DNA from: a virus
Virus record (IMG/VR): IMGVR_UViG_3300032267_001142
Span: 96,001 to 160,000 of that record
Strand: one strand, 5' to 3'
Length of the DNA stretch: 64,000 nucleotides
Both the position numbers and the translations under genes were made by a program. Of this stretch, positions 11,517 to 58,522 are shown piece by piece. The first letter of the stretch is position 1; every line of letters begins with the position of its first letter. A model generated the notes under the pieces. It made no database searches, had not been told where the DNA came from, and saw only the letters and a program-made list of their open reading frames with translations.

Positions 11517-12692
11517 ATGACAATTAGCTTGCCTATTAACAATGAAAATTTCAATGTCGTCGCTGGCAGAATAGCCGGAGACGAGGTATTTCTTGTGACT
11601 CCAAAGGGTATCGGCGCGAAGTTCACAAAAGACGACTTGATTTTTAGGTCTTCAGTCTGGACTAAAGACGGAAAACCCGTCTCGTTGTCATTGAAGAAAT
11701 TCTTTAACCTAGGCGAACGTCCTGATATTTATGACGCATCTGAAGATTTGCGTTTTTGCGAGATTATTGAAAAAATTGACGGTTCCTTACTGTGTGTATC
11801 GAAGTATAAAGGTGAAACGATTATTCGTACACGAGGAACATTATCCGCATTCGGCATGCCGAACGCGGCGGACATCTCAGCTTTGCAGCTTCGATATCCG
11901 AAAGCTTTTGAAATGGCCGCTTACCCAAGTGGGACTTGCGACTATTCCTTGATTTTTGAGTGGTATTCTCCGTCCAACAAAATCGTCATATCCTACGGCG
12001 ATGAACCTGAGCTATTCCTGATTGGTTGCGTTTCTCACGAAGATTACAGCCTATACACTCAATCCCAGTTAGACGCTATAGCCGCAGAGCTAGGAGTGAG
12101 GAGGCCCAAAAGATACAAGTTCGACACGCTGGCCGAAATGAAAAGGGCCATCGGAGCTTTGGACTATCAGCAAACTCAGGCGATGAGGTCCACGAAAGAC
12201 GCGGAAGCCCCTCCTGACGCGGCTCCTCTGGAAGGCTTCGCGGGAATGGAAGGCTTCTGTGTTTACTCACGAAATGGCCAGAAAATAGCCAAAGTAAAGA
12301 GCGCCACGTACTTGTGCCTGCACCGCATGAAGTCGGAACTGTCGTCGTTTGACAAGGTTTTGGATTTGTGGTTGATAAGCGATAGCAAGAACTTCAACGA
12401 TTTCTATTCTTACGTCTGCACGAATCTTGACTTTGAGATTGCCGAAATGGCCAAACCAGACATGAGCAAGGTGGCTGACGCGGCCAAGCAGGTAGATGGT
12501 ATCATCGCAGGGATGTCTCGCTTCGTCGAGACACGCCTTCGCCATCTGTCTTCTAGAAAGGAGCAGGCTCTAGCTATCCAAAGCGCCTACTCAAACACAA
12601 ACCGAGCCAGCTTCGTGTTCGCTATACTTGACGGAAAAGACTTAACAATCGACCAAAAGAGAAAGCTCTATTGGCAAGTCATTAAAAAGTAA
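11517..12692 (+). CDS. T4 Rnl1-like RNA ligase
   Basis: EKIDGSL motif I, IFEWYSP, LFLIG, EGFCV, KVKS motifs plus helical C-domain. Confidence 0.85.
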   Translation: MTISLPINNENFNVVAGRIAGDEVFLVTPKGIGAKFTKDDLIFRSSVWTKDGKPVSLSLKKFFNLGERPDIYDASEDLRFCEIIEKIDGSLLCVSKYKGETIIRTRGTLSAFGMPNAADISALQLRYPKAFEMAAYPSGTCDYSLIFEWYSPSNKIVISYGDEPELFLIGCVSHEDYSLYTQSQLDAIAAELGVRRPKRYKFDTLAEMKRAIGALDYQQTQAMRSTKDAEAPPDAAPLEGFAGMEGFCVYSRNGQKIAKVKSATYLCLHRMKSELSSFDKVLDLWLISDSKNFNDFYSYVCTNLDFEIAEMAKPDMSKVADAAKQVDGIIAGMSRFVETRLRHLSSRKEQALAIQSAYSNTNRASFVFAILDGKDLTIDQKRKLYWQVIKK

Positions 12693-12710
12693 TCCGGTGT
12701 AATCTTCTTG

Positions 12711-13364
12711 ATGAAGACTATTATCATCTCTGATATCCATTTGGGCAGTCCCGTCTGTCGGGCCGACAAGGTTCTGGACATTTTGAACTCCGATATGGAT
12801 GAATTAATCATTAATGGTGATTTAATAGACAGCAAGAACCTCACACGGTTTCGCTCTAAGCATTGGGAGATTTTGTCAAAGTTGAGAAAGTTGACGAAGA
12901 AGATTCCAACGCACCTTATCGGAGGGAACCATGACGGAGACTTAGGGCAGGTTTCTGATATGCTCGGTTTGGATTTCCGTCAGAGTATGGATATCAAAAC
13001 CGATAACTTTAATGCCTATGTTACTCACGGAGATAAGTTTGACCTCTGGATGAGCCTCCGAGGCGTGTCCGATTTCTTTTCTGGGCTTTACTATTACGTC
13101 CAAAGAATTGACAGTAAGAGTCGCCGGATGTCGAGGTTTATTAAACGCCTGAGCAAGAAGCTCATAAAGACAGACTCAAATATGGCAAATAAAGCGTGTC
13201 GCTACGCTAGCAAGCACGGTTACGATACCGCTATTTTGGGCCATAGTCATTTTGCAGACGATAAGATGATAGATGGCGTGCGTTACCTCAATAGTGGCTC
13301 TTTCTGTGAAGACCCGTGCCATTTTATTGAAGTTTCAGATTGCATTACTCTAAAAGAATGCTAG
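12711..13364 (+). CDS. Metallophosphoesterase (LpxH-like calcineurin family)
   Basis: SDIHLG, NGDLID, GNHD, THGD, GHSH, NSGS. Confidence 0.85.
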   Translation: MKTIIISDIHLGSPVCRADKVLDILNSDMDELIINGDLIDSKNLTRFRSKHWEILSKLRKLTKKIPTHLIGGNHDGDLGQVSDMLGLDFRQSMDIKTDNFNAYVTHGDKFDLWMSLRGVSDFFSGLYYYVQRIDSKSRRMSRFIKRLSKKLIKTDSNMANKACRYASKHGYDTAILGHSHFADDKMIDGVRYLNSGSFCEDPCHFIEVSDCITLKEC

Positions 13365-13377
13365 CATCTGAATATAG

Positions 13378-13551
13378 ATGCACTACCTTTATTTAAGCCT
13401 TCTGAAAGAGTCTACTCTCACCGAGCTTGAGAGTATGAAGAGAAACTTGGAGCAAAGTGTTGCGGCTGTAGAGGAAGTTATAAAAGCTAAAAAAGAAAGC
13501 TCGGCACAAAAGCCTCCAGAGCCAAAACGAGAGCTTCTCGTTACATCGTGA
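13378..13551 (+). CDS. Small hypothetical protein (57 aa)
   Basis: Hand-translated MHYLYLSLLKES...LLVTS*; fills the gap. Confidence 0.55.
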   Translation: MHYLYLSLLKESTLTELESMKRNLEQSVAAVEEVIKAKKESSAQKPPEPKRELLVTS

Positions 13552-13552
13552 T

Positions 13553-14092
13553 ATGCCTACGGACTCAATAAAAAAGCTAGAAAACGTCCTTCGCCACATC
13601 AAGCTAGTGCAAGATGCGACCCAGCTCTTAGGAAAGAGACTGATAGAGTCCGGTGAGGAGGAATTCGGAAGGGCGCTAATTGCTAGAGGGCTGATGCACG
13701 ATGTATCGAAACTCAGAGGCATCGAATGGAAGTTTCTGCACTCTTCCGAGCCTGCCACTACGGACGACGACAAAAAGAATCTGTCGTTAGCCATAGAGCA
13801 GCACCACGCAAGTAACGAGCATCATATTGAATTCTGGGGCGACCCCGAGTTTATGCCGAGATTATCCGTGGCCGAAATGATTTGCGACCTATACGCAAGG
13901 GCGCAGGAATTTGGTAGCGATGTCAAGGAATACATTTTTACTGACTTTTTCCGTCATCATAAGATTGGGCCTAATACCAAGACCGCGAAAAGGATGAAGT
14001 TTTTTCTCGACGTACTTCTAAATAAGCCCTTCAAAAAGGTTAAAGTCTGCGATAAGCAAGACGACAGCCGCGAACACAAAGAATCCAAATAA
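13553..14092 (+). CDS. HD-like hypothetical protein (DUF5662-like)
   Basis: RHI..V, HDVSK, HH..N.HH.EFW, EMICD. Confidence 0.7.
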   Translation: MPTDSIKKLENVLRHIKLVQDATQLLGKRLIESGEEEFGRALIARGLMHDVSKLRGIEWKFLHSSEPATTDDDKKNLSLAIEQHHASNEHHIEFWGDPEFMPRLSVAEMICDLYARAQEFGSDVKEYIFTDFFRHHKIGPNTKTAKRMKFFLDVLLNKPFKKVKVCDKQDDSREHKESK

Positions 14093-14108
14093 GTTAGCGC
14101 ACAATATC

Positions 14109-14480
14109 ATGAAAATAATTACAAGGTTCGTTAGATGGCTAACGAGATGGGCATGGAAGAAAGAGCTTGAGGCTACAGAAAACATCGCGACGCTAGAAAA
14201 GCTAGCCATGTCAGGAAATTACGCCGAGCTTGAGTTAAAGGCGAAATCTCCGGCGCTTCATCGTCATCTTTGTCGCTCTTTAGCGGCAATCGTCGCGGAA
14301 TCTCCGAATTACACAGAAATGAAATTCGATGTTGTCTCCGACCACGAGGACGGAAAGATATGGGTCACTGTCTTAGTTCAGAAAGGCTCAGGTCTTACTC
14401 CTCACGAATTGAGACGTGAAGCCGAGGCGCGGATAGCGGAGCTGCAAAAAGAGCTGGATTCTTTTAACAAGAGCAGTTAG
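14109..14480 (+). CDS. Hypothetical protein
   Basis: ORF in operon. Confidence 0.65.
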   Translation: MKIITRFVRWLTRWAWKKELEATENIATLEKLAMSGNYAELELKAKSPALHRHLCRSLAAIVAESPNYTEMKFDVVSDHEDGKIWVTVLVQKGSGLTPHELRREAEARIAELQKELDSFNKSS

Positions 14481-14489
14481 TATCGCTCA

Positions 14490-15623
14490 ATGACACCGTC
14501 ACTTTCTGATAGAGCGGACCTAATCGTATTGCGGCATCCGATAGTTCACGATAAATATACACAGGCCGCGCAGCAGATGTTTGACGTGCCTCACGCCGAG
14601 GAAAGCGTTACAGTTATTCAAAACGAGCTGACGATGCCGACTTCCGATTGGAACATCGGGCTTATTCATGGTCCGAGCGGTGCAGGAAAGTCTACTCTTC
14701 TTCGCCAATTCGGGAATCCCAAGACTTTCGCGTGGGACGCTCAGAAATCCGTGATAAGCCACTTTGACAACGTGTCTCCAGAAGAAGCAGCGGCGCTGCT
14801 TTCTTCGGTAGGATTTTCTACGGTTCCTGCTTGGCTCCGTCCGTATCATTGCTTGAGTGTCGGGGAAAGGTTCAGGTGCGATTTGGCTAGAGCCGTGGCA
14901 AGCGATGATACTATCATTTTAGTCGATGAGTTTACTTCTGTAGTCGATAGGAACGTCGCTCGCTCAGCCTGCGTGGCGCTTTCAAAACTAATACGCAAGA
15001 CCGGCAAAAAAATTATTCTGGCCTCGTGTCATTCGGATATAATTCCTTGGCTTTGCCCTGACTGGAGCTATGACCCTTCGGAGGCTGTGACCCACGAGTA
15101 TGCTCGTGGGAGCCTTCAACGCCCCGACGTTCATCTCAAAGTATTCAGAACAAAATATGAGGCGTGGCACCTATTCAGCAAATATCACTATCTGAGTGGA
15201 GACCTAAACAAGGCCGCTCGATGTTTCATGGCTACGTGGAATGACGTGCCGGTAGCTTTTTGTGCTATCCTCGCAATGCCTAATCCATACAAGAAGAATT
15301 GCTGGAGAGCCTCACGCACAGTAGTATTACCTGACTATCAAGGTTTGGGCATCGGAGTTAAGTTGTCAGACTATATGGGTTCATTAGTCAAAGCTGGCGG
15401 TGGAGTATATTATTCAAAGACTATTCATCCAGCCCTCATCGCTCACCGTTTGAAATCTGGTAAATGGAAAGAGACCTCCCATAGCCGTCAAGCTCGTAAT
15501 CCTTCCAACGAGTCAATGCAAAAAAGAAATTGGTTCGTTAGCCCTAGATTCTGCTACGCTTTTGAATATACTGGAGAGCCCGCTACAGAAGGGGCTGATA
15601 ATATCTTCTGGCAGAAATGCTGA
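14490..15623 (+). CDS. ABC-type ATPase fused to a GNAT-like acyltransferase
   Basis: GPSGAGKS Walker A, LSVGERFR signature, ILVDEFTS Walker B, then RTVVLPDYQGLGIG acyl-CoA motif. Confidence 0.85.
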   Translation: MTPSLSDRADLIVLRHPIVHDKYTQAAQQMFDVPHAEESVTVIQNELTMPTSDWNIGLIHGPSGAGKSTLLRQFGNPKTFAWDAQKSVISHFDNVSPEEAAALLSSVGFSTVPAWLRPYHCLSVGERFRCDLARAVASDDTIILVDEFTSVVDRNVARSACVALSKLIRKTGKKIILASCHSDIIPWLCPDWSYDPSEAVTHEYARGSLQRPDVHLKVFRTKYEAWHLFSKYHYLSGDLNKAARCFMATWNDVPVAFCAILAMPNPYKKNCWRASRTVVLPDYQGLGIGVKLSDYMGSLVKAGGGVYYSKTIHPALIAHRLKSGKWKETSHSRQARNPSNESMQKRNWFVSPRFCYAFEYTGEPATEGADNIFWQKC

Positions 15624-15877
15624 CCGCTAAGATTATGGGATATCATCGAAGAAAAATACCTAAAGGCAAACTAGGAGAAGCGTCCAAAATAACAGAAGAG
15701 TATCAAGAGATGCTCGATGGATTAGAGCAAGGAAATAAGGTGCTTGTTATCTGCGAGTTAGCTGATATGCTAGGAGCTATAGAAGCTTACGCTCTCAAGA
15801 CTTTCAATTTAACACTTGAGGATTTGCACAAAATGTCTAAAGCTACCGCAAGAGCTTTCAAAAAAGGAGACCGGTAA
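15617..15877 (+). CDS. MazG-like nucleotide pyrophosphohydrolase
   Basis: KITEEYQE...ELADMLGA. Confidence 0.7.
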   Translation: MLTAKIMGYHRRKIPKGKLGEASKITEEYQEMLDGLEQGNKVLVICELADMLGAIEAYALKTFNLTLEDLHKMSKATARAFKKGDR

Positions 15878-16458
15878 TGATAAACTTTAAGGTAATAGAT
15901 GATTCGATTAAGCACTATGAAAAACGCGGATTTCAGAGAATAGAGAGTCCGTGGACAGTGACTCAAGAAGTGCTGGATATCACTAAGCCTGATAGTGCCG
16001 TTGACTCGTTCCGGCTATTACATAAGAACGGTAAGGGTCTTGTAGCCTCTGGAGAGCAATCGTTTCTATATCTTTACTTGAAGGGTTTCCTACCGCTTGG
16101 AAGGTTCCAGACTGTGACGCCGTGTTTTAGGTTTGAGAATTTTGACTCCCTGCATACGAAATACTTCATAAAAAACGAACTAATAGAAACGAAAGCCGTC
16201 TCCGAGGCGACTCTAAATGATATTCTCGCGAACGCTCACGCTTTCTTCTCTTCGTATTTTTCAGACGCGGAGGAGCAGCTTAAAATAATAAAGACAAATA
16301 AAGAAGGCTCGCCAACGTCTTACGACATTTGTTATAGAGGCGTCGAGTTAGGAAGCTACGGTATTCGTAGTTGCGACTTTCTGGAATGGATTTATGGGAC
16401 TGGCGTTGCCGAGCCGAGGCTATCCCAAGTAATAAGGAAATTCAAAGACAAGCGATAA
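15877..16458 (+). CDS. Stand-alone class II aminoacyl-tRNA synthetase-like catalytic core
   Basis: Motif-2-like TPCFRFE, ELGSYG, motif-3-like GTGVAEPRL; no anticodon-binding domain. Confidence 0.7.
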   Translation: MINFKVIDDSIKHYEKRGFQRIESPWTVTQEVLDITKPDSAVDSFRLLHKNGKGLVASGEQSFLYLYLKGFLPLGRFQTVTPCFRFENFDSLHTKYFIKNELIETKAVSEATLNDILANAHAFFSSYFSDAEEQLKIIKTNKEGSPTSYDICYRGVELGSYGIRSCDFLEWIYGTGVAEPRLSQVIRKFKDKR

Positions 16459-16896
16459 TGAAACAACCGATACTTGGATTCTTTGGAGACTTCCGTGTCC
16501 TATCTAACTTTTGGCCGTGCGTAATAGAATACTGCGGCTATTCTTACCAGAATACGGAGGCGGCTTTTCAGGGCAATAAAAGCAACTCACAAGAGGATAA
16601 AGAAAGGTTTTCTTCCATGACCGCCGCCGAAGCGAAGAGAGAAAGTAAGAAACTTCGGCTTCGCGATGACTGGCTCGCCGTTAGGGACCAAATAATGCTG
16701 GACCTTATTAGGATAAAGTTCTCTAGTGCGAACCCCCGACTTGGTAGATAAACTCGAAGCTACAGGGGACGCATATCTCGAAGAGACTAACACTTGGGGA
16801 GACATCTATTGGGGAGTTTGCAAAGGCGTCGGCCAGAATAAACTCGGGAAAATAATCGCGCAGGTCCGAGAAGAAAACAGAAGCTCTTTTTGTTAA
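16458..16896 (+). pseudogene. NADAR (YbiA-like) protein split by a +1 frameshift at CCCCC 16733-16737
   Basis: Frame 1 LSNFWP...TEAAFQ...DDW..VRDQIM...KF stops at 16751; the shifted frame continues LVDKLEATGDAYLEETNTWGDIYWGVCKGVGQNKLGKII. Confidence 0.85.
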
Positions 16897-16966: not shown

Positions 16967-17998
16967 ATGAAAAGAAAACTGGCCTCAGTAAATGTCCTGA
17001 CGAATCTTCAAAAAATCGAGGGTGCCGACACCCTACAGAAGGGCAACATTCTGGGGTGGTCAGTAGTAACAAAAGCCGGAGCCTTCTCAGAGGGAGAAGA
17101 GGTCGTATACATCGAAGCGGATGCGGTTCTTCCAGAGGTTACGGAGTTCGAGTTTCTTCGCAAGAATAAGTTTAGGATTAAGCCGTGCAGGCTGCGCGGT
17201 CAGGTGTCTTTGGGACTCTGTATCCCTCTAAGCGAGGCGAAACAGGTCGCCGCAAATCTCGGCAACACAAACGTCAACTGGTCTGTCGGTGAAGATGTGA
17301 CAGAAGCGCTAGGAATCAAGAAGTTCGAGCCGTATGTTAGCCTATCCCTTTCTTCCGATATCAAGGGGCTATTTCCTTCATTCATTCCTCAGACCGATGA
17401 AATGAGAATCCAGTCAGTGCCAGAGCTTCTTAACAGGCACGAAAACCGTGAAGTCTATGTGTCTGAAAAATTGGAAGGAAGTTCCGCGACGTATTACTTG
17501 AATGATGGCGTCTTTGGGGTCTGTTCAAGGACGAGAGAACTTAAAGAGAGCGAATCTAACGCCTTCTGGTCCGTAGCGAAAAAGAACTCCATAGAACAGG
17601 GACTCAATACACTTGCTAAGTTCAGCAAGAATACCAAAAATATTGCTATCCAAGGCGAGCTGATTGGCCCTAAAATTCAGGGCAATCACTATGGATTAAC
17701 GGCTCCAGAATTTCGTCTTTTCAATGTTTGGGATATTGACAAACAGTGTCCGGTCGATTATGGTGACTTGTGCCTCGCCAGCTCAGTTCTTGAGCTGTAT
17801 TTGGTGCCAATCGTATATCACCGTATAAATCTGTCCGACAAAACTCTGGAAGAGTGGGTTTCTTTTGCTAACGGAAGAAGTCAGCTTGCCGATGTTCTCC
17901 GCGAAGGAATCGTCGTCAGGGCGATTTCTCCAGTCAGAGACGAAGACGTAGGCTGGATGTCCTTCAAGGCGATTTCTTCCGAATACCTTCTGCGATAA
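16967..17998 (+). CDS. RNA ligase, DRB0094/Rnl2-like with N-terminal OB-like domain
   Basis: RKLASV...IEGAD, KTDEMRIQ-like segment, EKLEGSS, QGELIGPKIQGN, REGIV, SFKAIS.EYL. Confidence 0.88.
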   Translation: MKRKLASVNVLTNLQKIEGADTLQKGNILGWSVVTKAGAFSEGEEVVYIEADAVLPEVTEFEFLRKNKFRIKPCRLRGQVSLGLCIPLSEAKQVAANLGNTNVNWSVGEDVTEALGIKKFEPYVSLSLSSDIKGLFPSFIPQTDEMRIQSVPELLNRHENREVYVSEKLEGSSATYYLNDGVFGVCSRTRELKESESNAFWSVAKKNSIEQGLNTLAKFSKNTKNIAIQGELIGPKIQGNHYGLTAPEFRLFNVWDIDKQCPVDYGDLCLASSVLELYLVPIVYHRINLSDKTLEEWVSFANGRSQLADVLREGIVVRAISPVRDEDVGWMSFKAISSEYLLR

Positions 17999-19119
17999 TG
18001 AACAACCTGCCCACATTATACTCCCGTAATCAAGACGGCTCCGTCCAGCAGTGGACTATCTTTTATGATGAAGATGGGTATTGGACGGAAAGCGGAAGAG
18101 TTGACGGCGTCATAACGCAGCACGGCAAGGTCGCGTGCGTAGGTAAAAATCTCGGGAAAAAGAACGAGACCACCGCAGCCCAACAAGCCGCGAGCGAGGC
18201 GCGTAGTAAGTTTGATAAGAAACTCAAGACCGGCCACTTCGAGGATGTGGCGCACATTGATAACTTCTACTTTGTAGAGCCCCAATTAGCAGTAGCGCTT
18301 GATAAAGTTAAGGCTGGTCTAGTTACACCGTGTTTGGTGCAGTGTAAGTATAACGGCGGCTGCGTTATTGCGACCCGTAAAGGTCTGTTTTCTCGCAAAG
18401 GCGAAGAGTATCTGTCGATACCTCACATTCAGCAGGCATTGAAGCCTATATTCGACAAATATCCAAACGCGGTCCTTCACGGCGAGGCGTTTAACGAAGG
18501 GTTACGCCAGCATCTTAATGAGATAATGAAGATTCTACGCAGAACTGTGAATGTCACCTCGGAAGTGTTACAGCGTAGCGAACAGCTCGTCCGTTTTTAT
18601 ATTTATGACGGTTATGGGTTTGAGGGAATGGAAGAGGAGACGCCATACAAGGACCGCAAGGCTGCGATTGACAACATTATCGCTGGGCATCCTAAATATT
18701 TATTTCAAGTTCCTACAGCGAAATGCTTGACGCAAAAAGAAGTTTGGGCGCTTTATCAAAGTTACATAGACGATGGGCACGAAGGGGCTATCGTCCGCTA
18801 CGAAGACAACATCTACGAACACAAACGCACACAGAAGCTTATCAAGCTCAAGCCTACGGACGATGATGAATTTTTGGTTGTAGCCTTACATGAAGGCACC
18901 GGAGACTGGGCTGGCACGGCTAGGCGCGTTGATTTCAAAATGAAGAACGGCGAAGTGTTCGGCGGCAACTTTAAGGGAAAGTTTGAGCAGGCGAAAGACG
19001 CTTGGGAGCACCCAGAGAAATATGTCGGCAAAGTCGTAACAGTGAGCTACAACGGACTCACTGGGCTGAATACTCCCAATTTCGCGCAGCTTGACCCCGA
19101 CAATTGTTTCAAATCGTAA
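17998..19119 (+). CDS. ATP-dependent DNA ligase
   Basis: QCKYNG (KxDG variant), HGE, YIYD, EGAIVR, KLKP and C-terminal OB fold. Confidence 0.85.
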   Translation: MNNLPTLYSRNQDGSVQQWTIFYDEDGYWTESGRVDGVITQHGKVACVGKNLGKKNETTAAQQAASEARSKFDKKLKTGHFEDVAHIDNFYFVEPQLAVALDKVKAGLVTPCLVQCKYNGGCVIATRKGLFSRKGEEYLSIPHIQQALKPIFDKYPNAVLHGEAFNEGLRQHLNEIMKILRRTVNVTSEVLQRSEQLVRFYIYDGYGFEGMEEETPYKDRKAAIDNIIAGHPKYLFQVPTAKCLTQKEVWALYQSYIDDGHEGAIVRYEDNIYEHKRTQKLIKLKPTDDDEFLVVALHEGTGDWAGTARRVDFKMKNGEVFGGNFKGKFEQAKDAWEHPEKYVGKVVTVSYNGLTGLNTPNFAQLDPDNCFKS

Positions 19120-19526
19120 TGCCGGAAGCAAAAACAACAAAAGTTGGCAAAGTTTTCATTTTTCCGTCAAGCAAGTTCTATTATTCGATAGAATTTGTAG
19201 ACAACCTGACTGAACTGGAATCGTTTTTATCTGGTCCTTGTGAAATAAAGCCCGAAGCTTTATGTATCTCTGGGCAAATAACTCCAAGGGCTACTAATTC
19301 TGTGGGCCGGATTATCTTTAGAAGAGACTTATTCAATGTGCGTCTGGTCGTTCATGAAGCGTGCCACGCTGCACATTATATCGTTCATGGGGGCTACTTT
19401 GAATTCAAAGGCGATGCCTTTGATAAAGAAGAGCTTGTCGCGACTTTCACTGAAATGATTTTCGCGAAGACCTGCCGAGTAGTTTCTCGATTTGAAGATT
19501 TGACTGATTCCAAAAAGCGAAGATAA
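19119..19526 (+). CDS. Hypothetical protein with HExxH motif
   Basis: VVHEACHAAH...EELVA. Confidence 0.6.
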   Translation: MPEAKTTKVGKVFIFPSSKFYYSIEFVDNLTELESFLSGPCEIKPEALCISGQITPRATNSVGRIIFRRDLFNVRLVVHEACHAAHYIVHGGYFEFKGDAFDKEELVATFTEMIFAKTCRVVSRFEDLTDSKKRR

Positions 19527-19990
19527 TGGCAGAAATGAAAGCGAACGCAAACAGTTTGTATTTAATGGTCGGGGCTCCAGCTTCAGGAAAGAGCACTTTT
19601 TCCATTCTCGATGCCGAGAAGAAAAGAGCCATCCGACTCAGCAGCGACGAGCTGCGTGCCACGATTGGTAAAAACGAAGAAGACCAAACCGTTACGGGCA
19701 AAGTTTTTGACTTTATTAAGGCCGCTGTCAAATACTTTCTGCGCGGAGGGTTTTCCGTCATCGTAGACGCCACGAACATCAATAAGAAAAACAGAGCGGA
19801 CTATCTCCGCATAGCCACGGAACTTAATGTGTCAGCGGTCGCTGTATGCTTTGAGGTGCCCGTCGAAGAGCTGAAGAAACGAAATTCCGAAAGGGCGCGC
19901 CAAGTGCCCGAATGGGTTATCGACAGATTTGTCAACTCGTACGAGCGCCCCACCCTATCTGAGGGCTTTTCGCGCATAGAAATGAGATAA
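19526..19990 (+). CDS. Polynucleotide kinase-like P-loop kinase (AAA_33)
   Basis: GAPASGKST, SSDELR, IVDATN, RN..R.R.VP. Confidence 0.85.
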   Translation: MAEMKANANSLYLMVGAPASGKSTFSILDAEKKRAIRLSSDELRATIGKNEEDQTVTGKVFDFIKAAVKYFLRGGFSVIVDATNINKKNRADYLRIATELNVSAVAVCFEVPVEELKKRNSERARQVPEWVIDRFVNSYERPTLSEGFSRIEMR

Positions 19991-19992
19991 CA

Positions 19993-20649
19993 ATGTTAAA
20001 AAATATCCACTTAACCACAAAAAACGGCAGCAACGTCTGGTTCTGCTCTGATACCCACTTCGGGCATGATAAGGAATTCATTATCAAGCCAAGGGGTTTC
20101 AATTCCATTCAGGAACACGATGCCGCTATCATAAAAGCTTGGAACGAGCGCGTGAAACCCTCCGACGCTGTCGTATTCCTAGGGGACTTCAGCCTGCGTT
20201 CGAGTGTAGAGCGGACAAAAGAGCTTCTGAATCTTCTGCATGGAACGATTTACTACATTTGGGGAAATCACGAAAGCTACGCTACGAGGATTTACAAAGA
20301 GGAACTCAACAAAGAGTTCGGCCACGCGAATTTCGAGATTTATCCCTTGAAGTGGAACAATAAAGTTGTATTCTTGGGCTCTGTAGCGAATGTTGTTGTC
20401 GATGGTCAGTTCATCGTGTGCTCTCATTTCCCATTTAGAATCTGGGAACACTGTCACCACGGGTCTTGGAATCTGAGCGGTCATAGCCACAGCAACGACA
20501 AAGAAAGAAACCCTGACCACACCGAGGGCAAGTGCCTCGATTGCGGCATTGATAACTTCTCCGGCCCGATAAGCTTCGCGGAAGTTTCTGAGAAACTCAA
20601 AAACCGAACGGTGGTCGCGTTAGACCATCACAATAGAAAAACCACATAA
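19993..20649 (+). CDS. Calcineurin-like phosphoesterase (RNA-repair-type)
   Basis: SDTHFGH, LGDF, GNHE, SHFP, GHSH; adjacent to the kinase. Confidence 0.85.
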   Translation: MLKNIHLTTKNGSNVWFCSDTHFGHDKEFIIKPRGFNSIQEHDAAIIKAWNERVKPSDAVVFLGDFSLRSSVERTKELLNLLHGTIYYIWGNHESYATRIYKEELNKEFGHANFEIYPLKWNNKVVFLGSVANVVVDGQFIVCSHFPFRIWEHCHHGSWNLSGHSHSNDKERNPDHTEGKCLDCGIDNFSGPISFAEVSEKLKNRTVVALDHHNRKTT

Positions 20650-20650
20650 C

Positions 20651-21595
20651 ATGAGTACTAATAAAGACCTATCTGTCGGAGTTATCGTCGGGCGCTTTCA
20701 ATGCGTGAATTTACACGCTGGGCACCGTTTCATTTTCGATGAGGTTATACGAAAACATAGCCGCGTCATTGTCTTCCTCGCTACAGGAGTACTGAAGGCG
20801 ACCGGAAATAATACGCTCTCCTATGCGGAACGCGAAAAGATGATACGCGAAGTATATCCTGACTTGGAAATTCATGAGTTGGAGAATCATCAGTCTGACC
20901 ACGAGTGGAGTCTGAACTTGGATAGGAAAATAGCTAGAGCAATACCTTTCGGAGTAAAGGCGCTGTTGTATTGTGGCAGAGAAGGTTTTAACAAGTACTA
21001 TTCGGGGAGTATAAGCGTGAACGTATTAAAAGCTCCAGAAGAGATTCTTGATTCTGCAACCGACCAAAGAAGAGAGGCTATATTCACTCCCATTTCGGAG
21101 AGAAATGCGTCGTTCCGAGCTGGCGCAATTTCGGCGGCTAATTCGCGCCCACCTACAGCCTATCAGACAGTAGACGTGGCGATACTTGATAAGAGCGGAC
21201 AAATCTTGTTGGCCGGAAAGCCGACGGACCCGCCGCATCTGTGGAGATTTGTGGGGGGTTTTTCCGAGCCTAGCTCACCGTCGCTAGAGCACGACGCTCT
21301 GAAAGAGGCGCGTGAAGAAGCGGGGCTTGAGGTCGCAAATCCCAAATATGTAGGTAGCCTTCTAACTGGCGACTGGAGATATCGTTGGGAAAAGGACAAA
21401 ATCAAGACCGCGCTATTTACGGTAGATTACGTCTTTGGAGCTGCGGTAGCGGGCGATGACGTTAGCCGCGTGCGGTGGTTTAACATCAAGGACGTGACAC
21501 TCGACATGATTGTTGAAGGCCATAGGCCGCTATGGGAAATGCTCAAAAGACATCTCGAAGATAAGAGTTGTCGTCCTGCACAAAGCGTAGTATAA
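20651..21595 (+). CDS. nadM: Bifunctional NMN adenylyltransferase / Nudix ADP-ribose pyrophosphatase
   Basis: GRFQ..HAGH nucleotidyltransferase motif, GGF...ALKEAREEAG Nudix box. Confidence 0.9.
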   Translation: MSTNKDLSVGVIVGRFQCVNLHAGHRFIFDEVIRKHSRVIVFLATGVLKATGNNTLSYAEREKMIREVYPDLEIHELENHQSDHEWSLNLDRKIARAIPFGVKALLYCGREGFNKYYSGSISVNVLKAPEEILDSATDQRREAIFTPISERNASFRAGAISAANSRPPTAYQTVDVAILDKSGQILLAGKPTDPPHLWRFVGGFSEPSSPSLEHDALKEAREEAGLEVANPKYVGSLLTGDWRYRWEKDKIKTALFTVDYVFGAAVAGDDVSRVRWFNIKDVTLDMIVEGHRPLWEMLKRHLEDKSCRPAQSVV

Positions 21596-21605
21596 AAGAC
21601 CCATC

Positions 21606-23036
21606 ATGAAGCCAAAAATGAAAGACAACACGGTATTCCTACTTGATTCTTACAAAATCGCGCATCCTAAAATGTTGCCCGAAGGAACAACTGGCGCATT
21701 TTCTTATGGCGAATCGCGTAAAGGCGCTCGTTACCCCTATACTGCGCTTTTCGGTCTTAGATATATCCTGCAAACTCATTTGGCTGGGCCGCGAGTTACT
21801 CCTGAAAAAATCGCTCAAGCGAACGAGCTTCTGACTGAGCATTTCAAATTCTGCGGTGATGTTTATGACGCCCGCATCTGGGAATACATTCTGAGAGAGT
21901 ATAACGGGCGACTTCCGTTGACAATTCGCGCCGTTCGTGAAGGAACGAAAGTGCCTACCGCTAACATGATGGTCAGTGTAGAGACTAGCGACAAAAACTG
22001 CGCGTGGCTCGTCGGTGGCGTTGAAACGGTATTGCAGCAAATGTGGTATCCTTCTACGGTTGCGACGCGTAGTCGATGCATCATCGACATCATCAAGGCT
22101 TACTTCAAGAGAACTGTTGATGACGATTTGCAGTGGCTTGCGGATTATTATTTGCACGACTTCGGGCAGAGGGCCGCGACGTGTATGGAGGCGGCTGGCC
22201 TAGGGGGAATGTCGCATCTACTCAACAGCAAGGGCACGGACACTCTTATGGGTATGGCTTATGCTATTGACGAATATGACGCAAGCCCTAAAGATTTGGC
22301 ATATTCGGTTCCTGCTAGTGAGCACCTGATTGCCACGTCGCTAGGTAAAGCTGGAGAATTTGCGGTAGCCAAGAGGCTCTTGCAGCTTTTTCCGAAGGGC
22401 ATATTGTCGCATGTTTCGGATAGCTATAACATCACTGAGGCAATCAGGATGTATAACGAAGACCCCGAGTTCCGCCGACTTATCTTGGCGAGGGATGGTA
22501 AATTCGTAGCTAGACCCGATAGTCCACGCTTTGAGCAGGACACGCCGCAAGACCAGATTCTTTGGATTACCCAACAGTGGGACAAGGGTTACGGCCACCG
22601 CGTAAACACTAAGGGCTATAAAGATTTGGACCCTCATGTCGGAACTATCTACGGAGATAGCCTTACAGAGGACAATATTGAGGACACGCTTAGTCTGCTA
22701 GAACAAAACGGTTATAGCGCGTTGGCGAGCGTTTTCGGATGTGGTGGTTATTTAATCCAGCGGATGCACCGCGATACTCAGCGTCAAGCTTTCAAGTGCA
22801 GCGCCCTCATGCACGACGGCGAGTGGCGCGATATCTGTAAAGAGCCGCTGGATAAGACGAAGGTTTCCAAGAAAGGGCGGCTCAAGCTCATCAAGAACGA
22901 ATATGGAGACTTTGAAACGGTTCCGTTTGAAGTGGACAAGCCCGACCAGATGGTTACGGTGTTCAAGAACGGCAACATGATGAACGTGGAAAACTTCGCG
23001 CAAATCAGACGCCGCATCAACGGAGAAATAGAATGA
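21606..23036 (+). CDS. nadV: Nicotinamide phosphoribosyltransferase
   Basis: DSYK..H, LHDFGQR, SVPASEH, VSDSY, RPDS, YGDS, FGCGG.L. Confidence 0.93.
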   Translation: MKPKMKDNTVFLLDSYKIAHPKMLPEGTTGAFSYGESRKGARYPYTALFGLRYILQTHLAGPRVTPEKIAQANELLTEHFKFCGDVYDARIWEYILREYNGRLPLTIRAVREGTKVPTANMMVSVETSDKNCAWLVGGVETVLQQMWYPSTVATRSRCIIDIIKAYFKRTVDDDLQWLADYYLHDFGQRAATCMEAAGLGGMSHLLNSKGTDTLMGMAYAIDEYDASPKDLAYSVPASEHLIATSLGKAGEFAVAKRLLQLFPKGILSHVSDSYNITEAIRMYNEDPEFRRLILARDGKFVARPDSPRFEQDTPQDQILWITQQWDKGYGHRVNTKGYKDLDPHVGTIYGDSLTEDNIEDTLSLLEQNGYSALASVFGCGGYLIQRMHRDTQRQAFKCSALMHDGEWRDICKEPLDKTKVSKKGRLKLIKNEYGDFETVPFEVDKPDQMVTVFKNGNMMNVENFAQIRRRINGEIE

Positions 23037-36080: not shown

Positions 36081-36154
36081 GCTCGGCTAGCTTAATGATA
36101 AAGCAAGCCTCTCTAAAAGGTCGTATCTCGGTTTGAGTCCGAGGTCGAGCACCA
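36081..36154 (+). tRNA. Amber suppressor tRNA (anticodon CTA)
   Basis: GCTCGGC/GTCGAGC, D arm GCTT/AAGC, loop CTCTAAA, T arm CTCGG-TTTGAGT-CCGAG, ACCA. Confidence 0.82.
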
Positions 36155-58108: not shown

Positions 58109-58522
58109 GGGGTAGCAAGGATTCGACAAATAAGACGAGTCTAAACCCGCAAGCCGCTTATGGTAGTTAGACTGCGTCAAATCTCTACCAAGCATAAACG
58201 TCTCAAACGTAATTGCAAAAGTGAAGACCGCTTGGAGCGCCTTCCGTAATAACCTTACGGTTGCCTTCGGGAGCTTTTCGCCCGTCGTGGCCTAATCACG
58301 GCCACCCGTATCATTTCCGATTTCTGCTAGGACTTAGATGCGACATTAGCAGGATTTACGAAATAAGTTCGCATATTCTTATTCGTCACATACGATATAC
58401 GCTGTGGTCAGTTAGGTTTTGTCATTTTAGACAACTGGCCGAAAGCAAAAAAGAAACTAAGCTTGTAGAAGGTCTGATAAAAATTGTTTGGACAGGGGCT
58501 TCGATGCCCCTCTACTCCACCA
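58109..58522 (+). ncRNA. ssrA: tmRNA (414 nt); tag ORF 58215-58295, AKVKTAWSAFRNNLTVAFGSFSPVVA*
   Basis: GGGGTAG/CTACTCC acceptor with G3:U70, 5' GGATTCGAC, 3' GACAGGGGCTTCGATGCCCC...ACCA; GCA resume codon after TAATT. Confidence 0.92.

Follow-up and report, generated by a model that had tools for sequence, protein, structure and literature searches.

A MazG-like and synthetase-like gene pair inside a phage RNA-repair and NAD-salvage island: a locus that is probably a mosaic

The IMG/VR record IMGVR_UViG_3300032267_001142 is a complete phage genome of 186,105 bp with direct terminal repeats, and its bases 96001-160000 form the 64-kb window analysed here, to which all positions refer. Between 14490 and 16896, four genes follow one another on the + strand, namely an ABC-type ATPase fused to a GNAT acyltransferase (ATPase-GNAT), a MazG-like pyrophosphohydrolase, a minimal core resembling class II aminoacyl-tRNA synthetases (aaRSs) and a NADAR gene (Table 1). 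The four gene types had been named in an initial annotation made from the sequence, and Pfam and phrog profiles confirm them. The same annotation proposed that the four genes constitute a single aminoacyl- or acyl-transfer pathway. Our analysis points rather, with a probability of about 0.7, to a mosaic, in which a cassette of the MazG-like and aaRS-like genes (hereafter the pair) would lie between two backbone genes, ATPase-GNAT and NADAR.

Gene neighbourhoods across phages, which had been named beforehand among the tests that could refute a single pathway, support linkage of the pair and of neither ATPase-GNAT nor NADAR. Two sets of loci were compared: 60 around aaRS-like homologues (58 viral loci, phage phi92 and a 642-kb uncultured phage) and, for ATPase-GNAT homologues, the 80 best viral loci. 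The first set contained neither ATPase-GNAT nor NADAR (0/60), and the second lacked the pair (0/80) and had NADAR at one locus (L065). A pathway of all four genes, modifying DNA, tRNA or a translation factor or serving counter-defence, would fit their contiguity, shared strand and start-stop coupling in the window, as well as the nucleotide- or nucleic-acid-related chemistry common to them. However, the missing co-conservation largely refutes it, the closest relatives of each part have different neighbours, such coupling is normal across a block of 11.5-24 kb and the NADAR gene is frameshifted in the window; we regard it as very improbable.

The overlapping or start-stop-coupled arrangement noticed earlier is real as tight packing and is general to the region. 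From 11517 to about 24000 all genes are tightly packed on the + strand, and the gaps between open reading frames (ORFs) are mostly -16 to +16 nt; since coupling is typical of this whole stretch, it does not mark the four genes as a unit. A promoter and terminator scan of the island gave no signal above the shuffled expectation, and nothing in it delimits the four genes. One of the overlaps probably has to be given up. An in-frame ATG at 15617 would give a MazG-like protein of 86 aa and overlap the ATPase-GNAT stop. The relatives all begin with MGYH, and because this is the N-terminus of the family, the start is probably the ATG at 15635, 11 nt past that stop, and ATG 15617 is the less likely choice.

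The relatives of the window lineage indicate what is constant at this locus and what varies. L065, L066 and the P0122 contig, whose ATPase-GNAT is 66% identical, have the common order Rnl1-(x)-DUF5662-(x)-ATPase-GNAT...NADAR, and L065 also shares the succession NADAR-DNA ligase-kinase-phosphoesterase. The slot between ATPase-GNAT and NADAR is occupied in L065 by an RNA ligase and a 214-aa gene, and in the P0122 contig by a TylF-like methyltransferase, an RNA ligase and a 253-aa gene. As the relatives keep the backbone but carry other genes there, the pair reads as a cassette in a variable slot of the island. Conversely, the P0002 contig, which has the nearest aaRS-like protein (64% identity), has the two pair genes in reverse order next to a CTP_transf-CoaE fusion, and both ATPase-GNAT and NADAR are missing from the surroundings. 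Judged by this synteny, ATPase-GNAT and NADAR belong to an RNA-repair and NAD-salvage island of the lineage, the backbone of which runs Rnl1, phosphoesterase, DUF5662, ATPase-GNAT...NADAR, RNA and DNA ligases, kinase, NMNAT-Nudix and NAMPT, and the pair is a mobile two-gene cassette. On the evidence of gene order, the apparent four-gene pathway is an accident of a cassette entering a packed island.

Table 1. Features of the window at and around the four-gene locus.
Feature	Position	Strand	Support
ABC-type ATPase fused to GNAT acyltransferase, 377 aa	14490-15623	+	Pfam and phrog_11143
MazG/HisE-like all-alpha nucleoside triphosphate (NTP) pyrophosphohydrolase, 80 aa from the MGYH start	15635-15877	+	phrog_6408 at 3e-28
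Minimal class II aaRS catalytic core, 193 aa	15877-16458	+	phrog_4806 at 1e-39
NADAR, N-terminal part, 97 aa	16458-16751	+	Pfam NADAR positions 11-104, E 2e-6, 28.5 bits; phrog_1017
NADAR, C-terminal part in +1 frame, DLVDKLEATGDAYLEE...	16738-16896	+	Pfam positions 104-161, E 5.5e-5, 23.9 bits; phrog_1017 positions 101-154
C5 homopolymer with +1 shift of the NADAR frame, AAC CCC C/GAC	16733-16737	+	
T4 Rnl1-like RNA ligase	11517-12692	+	Pfam
Calcineurin-like phosphoesterase	12708-13364	+	Pfam
DUF5662	13553-14092	+	Pfam, E 1e-20
Hypothetical gene	14109-14480	+	
Downstream backbone, RNA ligase (PHA02142 type) through NAMPT	16967-23036	+	Pfam
tRNA with CUA (amber-reading) anticodon, within tRNA array	36081-36154		
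Phage tmRNA, 26-residue tag	58109-58522		

The relation of the MazG-like to the aaRS-like gene is of another kind. The two lie close together in 60/60 loci (59 by tblastn, phi92 by annotation), mostly adjacent and in a few loci 0.3-1.2 kb apart, with the aaRS-like gene first in 42/60 and the MazG-like gene first in 18/60. The two are naturally fused in L049, in L056 and in MaMV-DC, a cultured phage of Microcystis (ORF129L). When the L049 fusion was used for an exhaustive search, 1985 representatives (50% identity) were obtained at E<=1e-3, and both domains were matched in one stretch in 47 of the best 150 representatives at that level. The linker of the fusions measures 4-5 residues, and a natural fusion was modelled with a predicted local distance difference test (pLDDT) score of 90.2 and a predicted template-modelling (TM) score of 0.80, the partner domain forming three helices at 215-276. 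Because they stay close in both orders and are often fused through so short a linker, the two genes form, on comparative grounds, one functional unit. No third conserved neighbour appeared in the 60 loci, where the next clusters reach <=13/60 and the largest of them is an antisense ORF.

The pair is found in large phages, with 276 records in the phage collection, and its carriers include phi92-like and Vequintavirinae coliphages, Acinetobacter T4-like phages, Caulobacter and Brevundimonas jumbo phages, Microcystis phages and XacN1. GenBank labels its members "putative seryl-" or "histidyl tRNA synthetase" and "MazG-like" or "phosphoribosyl-ATP pyrophosphatase"; our search for literature on its function found no study, annotation mentions only. 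In CR9 a RlaP nucleotidyltransferase lies upstream of the pair. A neighbourhood of the rV5 type with a MazG-superfamily pyrophosphatase has been interpreted as RNA-end clean-up and repair (Iyer et al., 2022; PMC9503650). In L152, a 178-kb relative with the closest aaRS-like gene, Ro60/TROVE, RNA ligase and HAD_SAK_2 phosphatase genes lie a few kb from the pair (16285-16570; 12791-15237). Furthermore, a role of the pair as a replacement for seryl-tRNA synthetase (SerRS) in bacteria of the candidate phyla radiation (CPR) was considered and rejected: 3/3 pair-carrying genomes have a full-length SerRS, and within the phylum Saccharibacteria the pair occurs in 1/301 genomes sampled.

The aaRS-like protein had been described as a class II synthetase-like core without an anticodon domain, and this description stands. 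The protein starts at the motif 1 helix, and no tRNA-binding arm, anticodon domain or editing domain was found in its 193 residues. Among 21 homologues, P25 (motif 1), R85 in TPCFRxE (motif 2) and R181 in GTGxAEPR (motif 3) are invariant, and so are S58 and E60 (ASGEQ), K99 and E101 (FxKxE) and T175. The AlphaFold2 model has a pLDDT of 90.9, and Foldseek matched it to pyrrolysyl-tRNA synthetase (PylRS) and SerRS at E about 1e-9 and a TM score of about 0.7, all 40 listed matches being class II aaRSs or their paralogues. VIA, which is independent of Foldseek, returned class II aaRSs or paralogues (HisZ, AsnA, GenX, Bll0957) in 48 of 50 listed matches. The other two are DNA polymerase gamma, the accessory subunit of which is aaRS-like. 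SerRS came first in VIA (Z 19.4, root-mean-square deviation (rmsd) 2.7 over 189 residues; further SerRS entries 18.1-17.6), followed by HisRS/HisZ (18.3-16.6), PylRS (17.6) and the carrier-protein ligase Bll0957 (16.6), with the class IIb paralogues AsnA, LysRS and GenX at Z 13-14; the alignments begin at SerRS residue 161-231, past the arm. Motifs and modelled fold together make the protein a class II catalytic core, and the structure prediction proposed as a check on the active site has thus come out in favour of one.

Further comparisons concern its family. A word-indexed search gave 1848 proteins at E<=1e-5. Profile alignments to SerRS (PDB profile E 0.047; hhalign E 6e-5) cover motif 1, ASGEQ with TAE, CFRxE and FxKxE; E60 and E101 align to their SerRS equivalents by hhalign, and the position of T175, six residues ahead of the motif 3 Arg, was assigned by spacing alone. 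When the single protein was searched against the PDB by sequence only, the matches were no better than chance. Against TIGR00414 the protein scores 11.8 bits, far from the cut-off of 301.65, and it has no SerRS coiled-coil arm, which places it outside the SerRS family proper. A zinc site of the methanogen SerRS type was rejected, as C166 varies in more distant members. In addition, a search for longer fusions turned up one protein, P0242, of metagenomic origin and 443 aa long, which joins the aaRS-like core to a C-terminal region of about 260 residues of no known family, in which the GYH motif is present and the MazG metal motifs are absent.

The MazG-like partner was likewise named correctly at the outset. 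Across 25 homologues, Y3, H4, K18, E21, E22, E25, E41, D44 and R80 are invariant; E21, E22, E25, E41 and D44 make up the EExxE...ExxD metal site of the all-alpha NTP pyrophosphohydrolases, to which the protein probably belongs by this signature. Its family-level matches are to HisE/PRA-PH and all lie below threshold: PRA-PH reaches 16.8 bits against a cut-off of 21.3 (E 0.0095), MazG an E of 0.094 and TIGR03188 an E of 0.0088, and the PDB profile search gave E 0.19-0.8 only, to SSO3215 and HisE. Some partners carry an N-terminal extension of 120-145 residues without a Pfam match, as in L146:2357-2980 (Acinetobacter phage AM101 orf118) and L045/L047.

A mechanism for the pair can be proposed from these features. 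The aaRS-like core, probably a dimer like other class II enzymes, would bind ATP and a small amino acid and form an aminoacyl-adenylate. Serine is the best guess for the amino acid, because E60, E101 and T175 would correspond to the serine contacts of SerRS. As the core lacks a tRNA-recognition arm, the aminoacyl group would be passed to an acceptor recognised only at its end. We tentatively rate the 3' end of RNA or tRNA as the foremost candidate, with a probability clearly short of even, because the phages that carry the pair are rich in tRNAs and frequently have it within or next to a tRNA array (inside the array in L041, L044 and L052/L053) and near RNA ligase genes (RNA ligase-like genes within 8 kb in 11/60 loci). 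The MazG-like partner, with its Mg-binding EExxE/ExxD residues intact, would act in the same series of reactions on a substrate or product that bears a triphosphate, hydrolysing an alpha-beta phosphoanhydride.

Several points weigh against this picture. The core is probably of the SerRS type, with HisRS/HisZ and PylRS following within about 1-2 Z units. Pfam hits in family members are to tRNA-synt_2 (D/K/N) in 16/21 as against 4/21 for the 2b model (PF00587), the best 2b hit having an E of 0.021. The roles of E60, E101 and T175 are those we take the equivalent residues to have in T. thermophilus SerRS. tRNA genes occur within 8 kb of the pair in 22/58 loci (182 tRNAs) vs 0/80 ATPase-GNAT loci, a weak contrast given that the latter set consists mostly of small phages without tRNAs, and 36/58 pair loci have no tRNA within that distance. 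The pair also stands in a Saccharibacteria chromosome beside NUDIX, PRK-family kinase and TrmB genes, without phage context. Substrate, acceptor and the part played by the MazG-like protein are putative for every member of the family.

The same tRNA setting would suit a minimal SerRS that charges phage or host tRNA-Ser late in infection, next to a MazG-like protein that merely removes inhibitory nucleotides. SerRS is the top structural match, the presumed equivalents of the serine contacts are invariant, and the pair of the tRNA-rich phages is also found inside arrays that include tRNA-Ser (L013, L041, L044, L052); in phi92 a gene with a YqeY domain, a helper of the tRNA-binding type, lies directly downstream of the pair. 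However, the protein has no coiled-coil arm with which to read the long variable arm of tRNA-Ser, the TIGR00414 score is far below its cut-off, a CPR genome carrying the pair also has a normal SerRS, and tRNA charging would leave the constant proximity and frequent fusion of the MazG-like gene unexplained, so that such an enzyme appears unlikely.

The weak HisE/PRA-PH matches of the partner lead to another alternative, as this enzyme trims a modified ATP. The pair might make or process a small nucleotide: the core would aminoacylate a free nucleotide or make dinucleoside polyphosphates (ApnN), and the MazG-like protein would trim the triphosphate in the manner of HisE, feeding nucleotide metabolism, DNA hypermodification or signalling. 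Diadenosine tetraphosphate (Ap4A) is a known product of class II synthetases, and the pair is often found among genes for thymidylate synthase, dCMP deaminase, Nrd, NAMPT, CTP_transf-CoaE and kinases. Nevertheless, no kinase, polymerase-linked gene or other third enzyme is conserved with the pair, and we know of no studied truncated aaRS paralogue that loads a free nucleotide; the proposal has a small chance of being right.

A third alternative assigns no transfer to the core at all. Like HisZ or the HisRS-like domain of GCN2, it would sense an amino acid, an adenylate or uncharged tRNA and switch its MazG-like partner, a hydrolase whose target could be, for instance, (p)ppGpp or a different alarmone. 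HisZ and HisRS rank high among the structural matches (Z 17-18.3), fusions of sensor and effector are a common architecture, and a phage MazG-like enzyme, Atd1, reportedly depletes (p)ppGpp. Atd1 is described in a preprint (bioRxiv 10.1101/2022.06.09.495361). Adenylate chemistry requires the arginines of motifs 2 and 3 together with the TxE-like and FxKxE residues, all of which are nevertheless invariant; this argues for catalysis and makes a pure sensor rather improbable.

A bolder version of the proposed mechanism deserves mention, even if we hold it to be quite a long shot. In this version, the pair would work as one enzyme, independent of tRNA, that either makes an aminoacylated nucleotide or attaches an aminoacyl group to a bare RNA 3' end (e.g., by seryl transfer to the ribose of ATP or to a CCA end, followed by trimming of the triphosphate), and may have been recruited into an island servicing the 54 non-canonical tRNAs of the phage. 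If this were true, the RNA ligases, kinase, phosphoesterases, ATPase-GNAT and NADAR would form, together with the recruited pair, an island for the repair and re-tooling of tRNA. Each of the truncated aaRS paralogues AsnA, EpmA, HisZ and the carrier-protein ligases has brought to light a new way of using aminoacyl-adenylate chemistry. The pair would be another such case, with about 2000 clusters at 50% identity and a pyrophosphohydrolase as obligate partner, and testing it is easy, given small genes, the existence of natural fusions and tractable host phages. For the annotation of the window, the outcome is that the four genes are not one system, that the ATPase-GNAT family has already been described and that the NADAR gene is interrupted.

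The island itself occupies 11.5-23 kb of the window. Pfam reads the block as T4 Rnl1-like RNA ligase, calcineurin-like phosphoesterase, DUF5662, a hypothetical gene, ABC-ATPase-GNAT, MazG-like, aaRS-like and NADAR, and continues with RNA ligase (PHA02142 type), ATP-dependent DNA ligase, a hypothetical gene, AAA_33 kinase, phosphoesterase, NMNAT-Nudix, NAMPT and thymidylate synthase, a content which identifies it as an RNA-repair and NAD-salvage island. The DUF5662 gene has H..HD-like motifs (MHDVSK, EQHHASNEHH) and is kept near ATPase-GNAT in the phage lineage; it may encode a phosphohydrolase of the HD type belonging to the repair island. No near relative of the region came up in a megablast search of the phage collection, and PADLOC found no match for the MazG-like, aaRS-like and NADAR proteins and generic ATPase matches only for ATPase-GNAT. 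The window as a whole contains 24 tRNA genes and a tmRNA.

The reading of the first gene as an ATPase-acyltransferase fusion without a permease was borne out. Pfam finds ABC_tran (1e-8) and Acetyltransf_1 (4.7e-6), phrog_11143 matches at 2e-114, and no permease gene lies nearby. Walker A (GPSGAGKST), signature (LSVGE), Walker B (ILVDE) and GNAT (YQGLGIG) motifs are present, and in the family alignment G61-K67, S123/G125/E126, D146/E147, H181 and Q284/G285 are invariant. More than 4800 homologues were obtained at E<=1e-10. At the 80 viral loci, the neighbours are a helix-turn-helix protein of the DnaA_C type (30/80), a DnaB-like helicase, a PDDEXK nuclease, a terminase and ASCH/DUF3850, so the common neighbourhood is the replication module of small phages. 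An ASCH/DUF3850 gene stands directly 3' of ATPase-GNAT in 13/80 viral loci (among L065-L144; e.g., L137:1196-1453). ASCH proteins include an N4-acetylcytidine amidohydrolase, so the two genes might act as writer and eraser, or as writer and reader, of an acyl-base mark. The gene is 44% identical to one of Tenacibaculum phage pT24, which has been named as a member of the ABC-GNAT family of predicted DNA-modification enzymes (PMC7824862); with both domains and this homology, the window protein is by sequence a member of an already-described family. According to PMC7824862, Iyer et al. (2013, NAR 41:7635) predicted that ABC ATPase-GNAT proteins acylate a DNA base, and the window protein would accordingly be an ATP-driven acyl-CoA transferase acting on a nucleic-acid base. 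In the window lineage, this protein predicted elsewhere for DNA is placed among RNA-repair genes.

For NADAR, the earlier assignment to the family was right, although the gene is not one ORF. Its ATG overlaps the aaRS-like stop (TAATG), frame 0 closes at a TAA beyond the shift site, and the two frames can join only at the C5 run, where a +1 shift splits them. When read with X at the break, the protein aligns end to end with the intact 173-aa L065 homologue, and in the closest relatives the gene is intact with 173-178 aa. Taken singly, the fragments score 28.5 and 23.9 bits, below the PF08719 cut-off of 35.1 for an intact domain; the portion after the shift is otherwise undamaged. Three origins of the break are conceivable: a mistake in the assembly, an inactivation so recent that the gene is a fresh pseudogene, or a site of +1 recoding. 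The product would be an ADP-ribose-removing enzyme and is, as assembled, broken, misassembled or frameshift-dependent. Jumbo-phage NADARs have been treated together with NAD/ADP-ribose processing and NAD-dependent RNA repair (PMC7824862), a context that fits the location of the gene in the island.

The two backbone genes can also be compared with known systems. Both halves of the interrupted gene match adjoining stretches of the NADAR profile (PF08719; YbiA-type N-glycosidases, ADP-ribose-removal enzymes), from which the window gene differs in its +1 shift at C5; in other genomes the family has no linkage to the pair. The ATPase-GNAT protein has the same two-domain architecture as the ABC ATPase-GNAT family of phages, including the pT24 member, whereas in most phages this family belongs to a replication/recombination module (DnaA_C helix-turn-helix, DnaB-like, PDDEXK, terminase) and in the window lineage to the RNA-repair island.

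The aaRS-like core resembles three kinds of class II protein. HisZ, the HisRS paralogue and regulatory subunit of ATP phosphoribosyltransferase, is also without tRNA function (Z 17.2-18.3), and the sole family-level matches of the partner, below threshold as they are, are to phosphoribosyl-ATP pyrophosphatase (HisE/PRA-PH); in contrast to the HisZ/HisE system, no HisG accompanies the pair and the catalytic arginines of the core are kept. The amino acid:[carrier protein] ligases (Bradyrhizobium Bll0957, PDB 3mey; Z 16.6) are likewise stand-alone SerRS-like cores without a tRNA-binding domain, and an Atlas search gave a cluster of 280-aa bacterial stand-alone class II cores at a TM score of 0.85 to the aaRS-like protein. 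However, the core of the pair is about 100 residues shorter than these ligases, its partner is a pyrophosphohydrolase and no conserved carrier-protein gene adjoins it. On the last point, a Pfam scan of seven of the next neighbour clusters (<=13/60 loci) found no carrier protein among them, three having no Pfam match and the rest being GIY-YIG/T5orf172 nuclease, RNA ligase and thymidylate synthase. The closest likeness is to the catalytic domain of SerRS (human mt-SerRS 7u2a, T. thermophilus 1ser), which has the same fold over the 193 residues (Z 19.4-17.8, rmsd 2.7-2.8 over 188-189) and shares motifs 1-3, the TAE, CFRxE and FxKxE of SerRS aligning with S-x-E (in ASGEQ), CFRxE and FxKxE; unlike SerRS, the core is without the N-terminal coiled-coil tRNA arm, is about 100 residues shorter at 14-18% identity and is always accompanied by its MazG-like partner.

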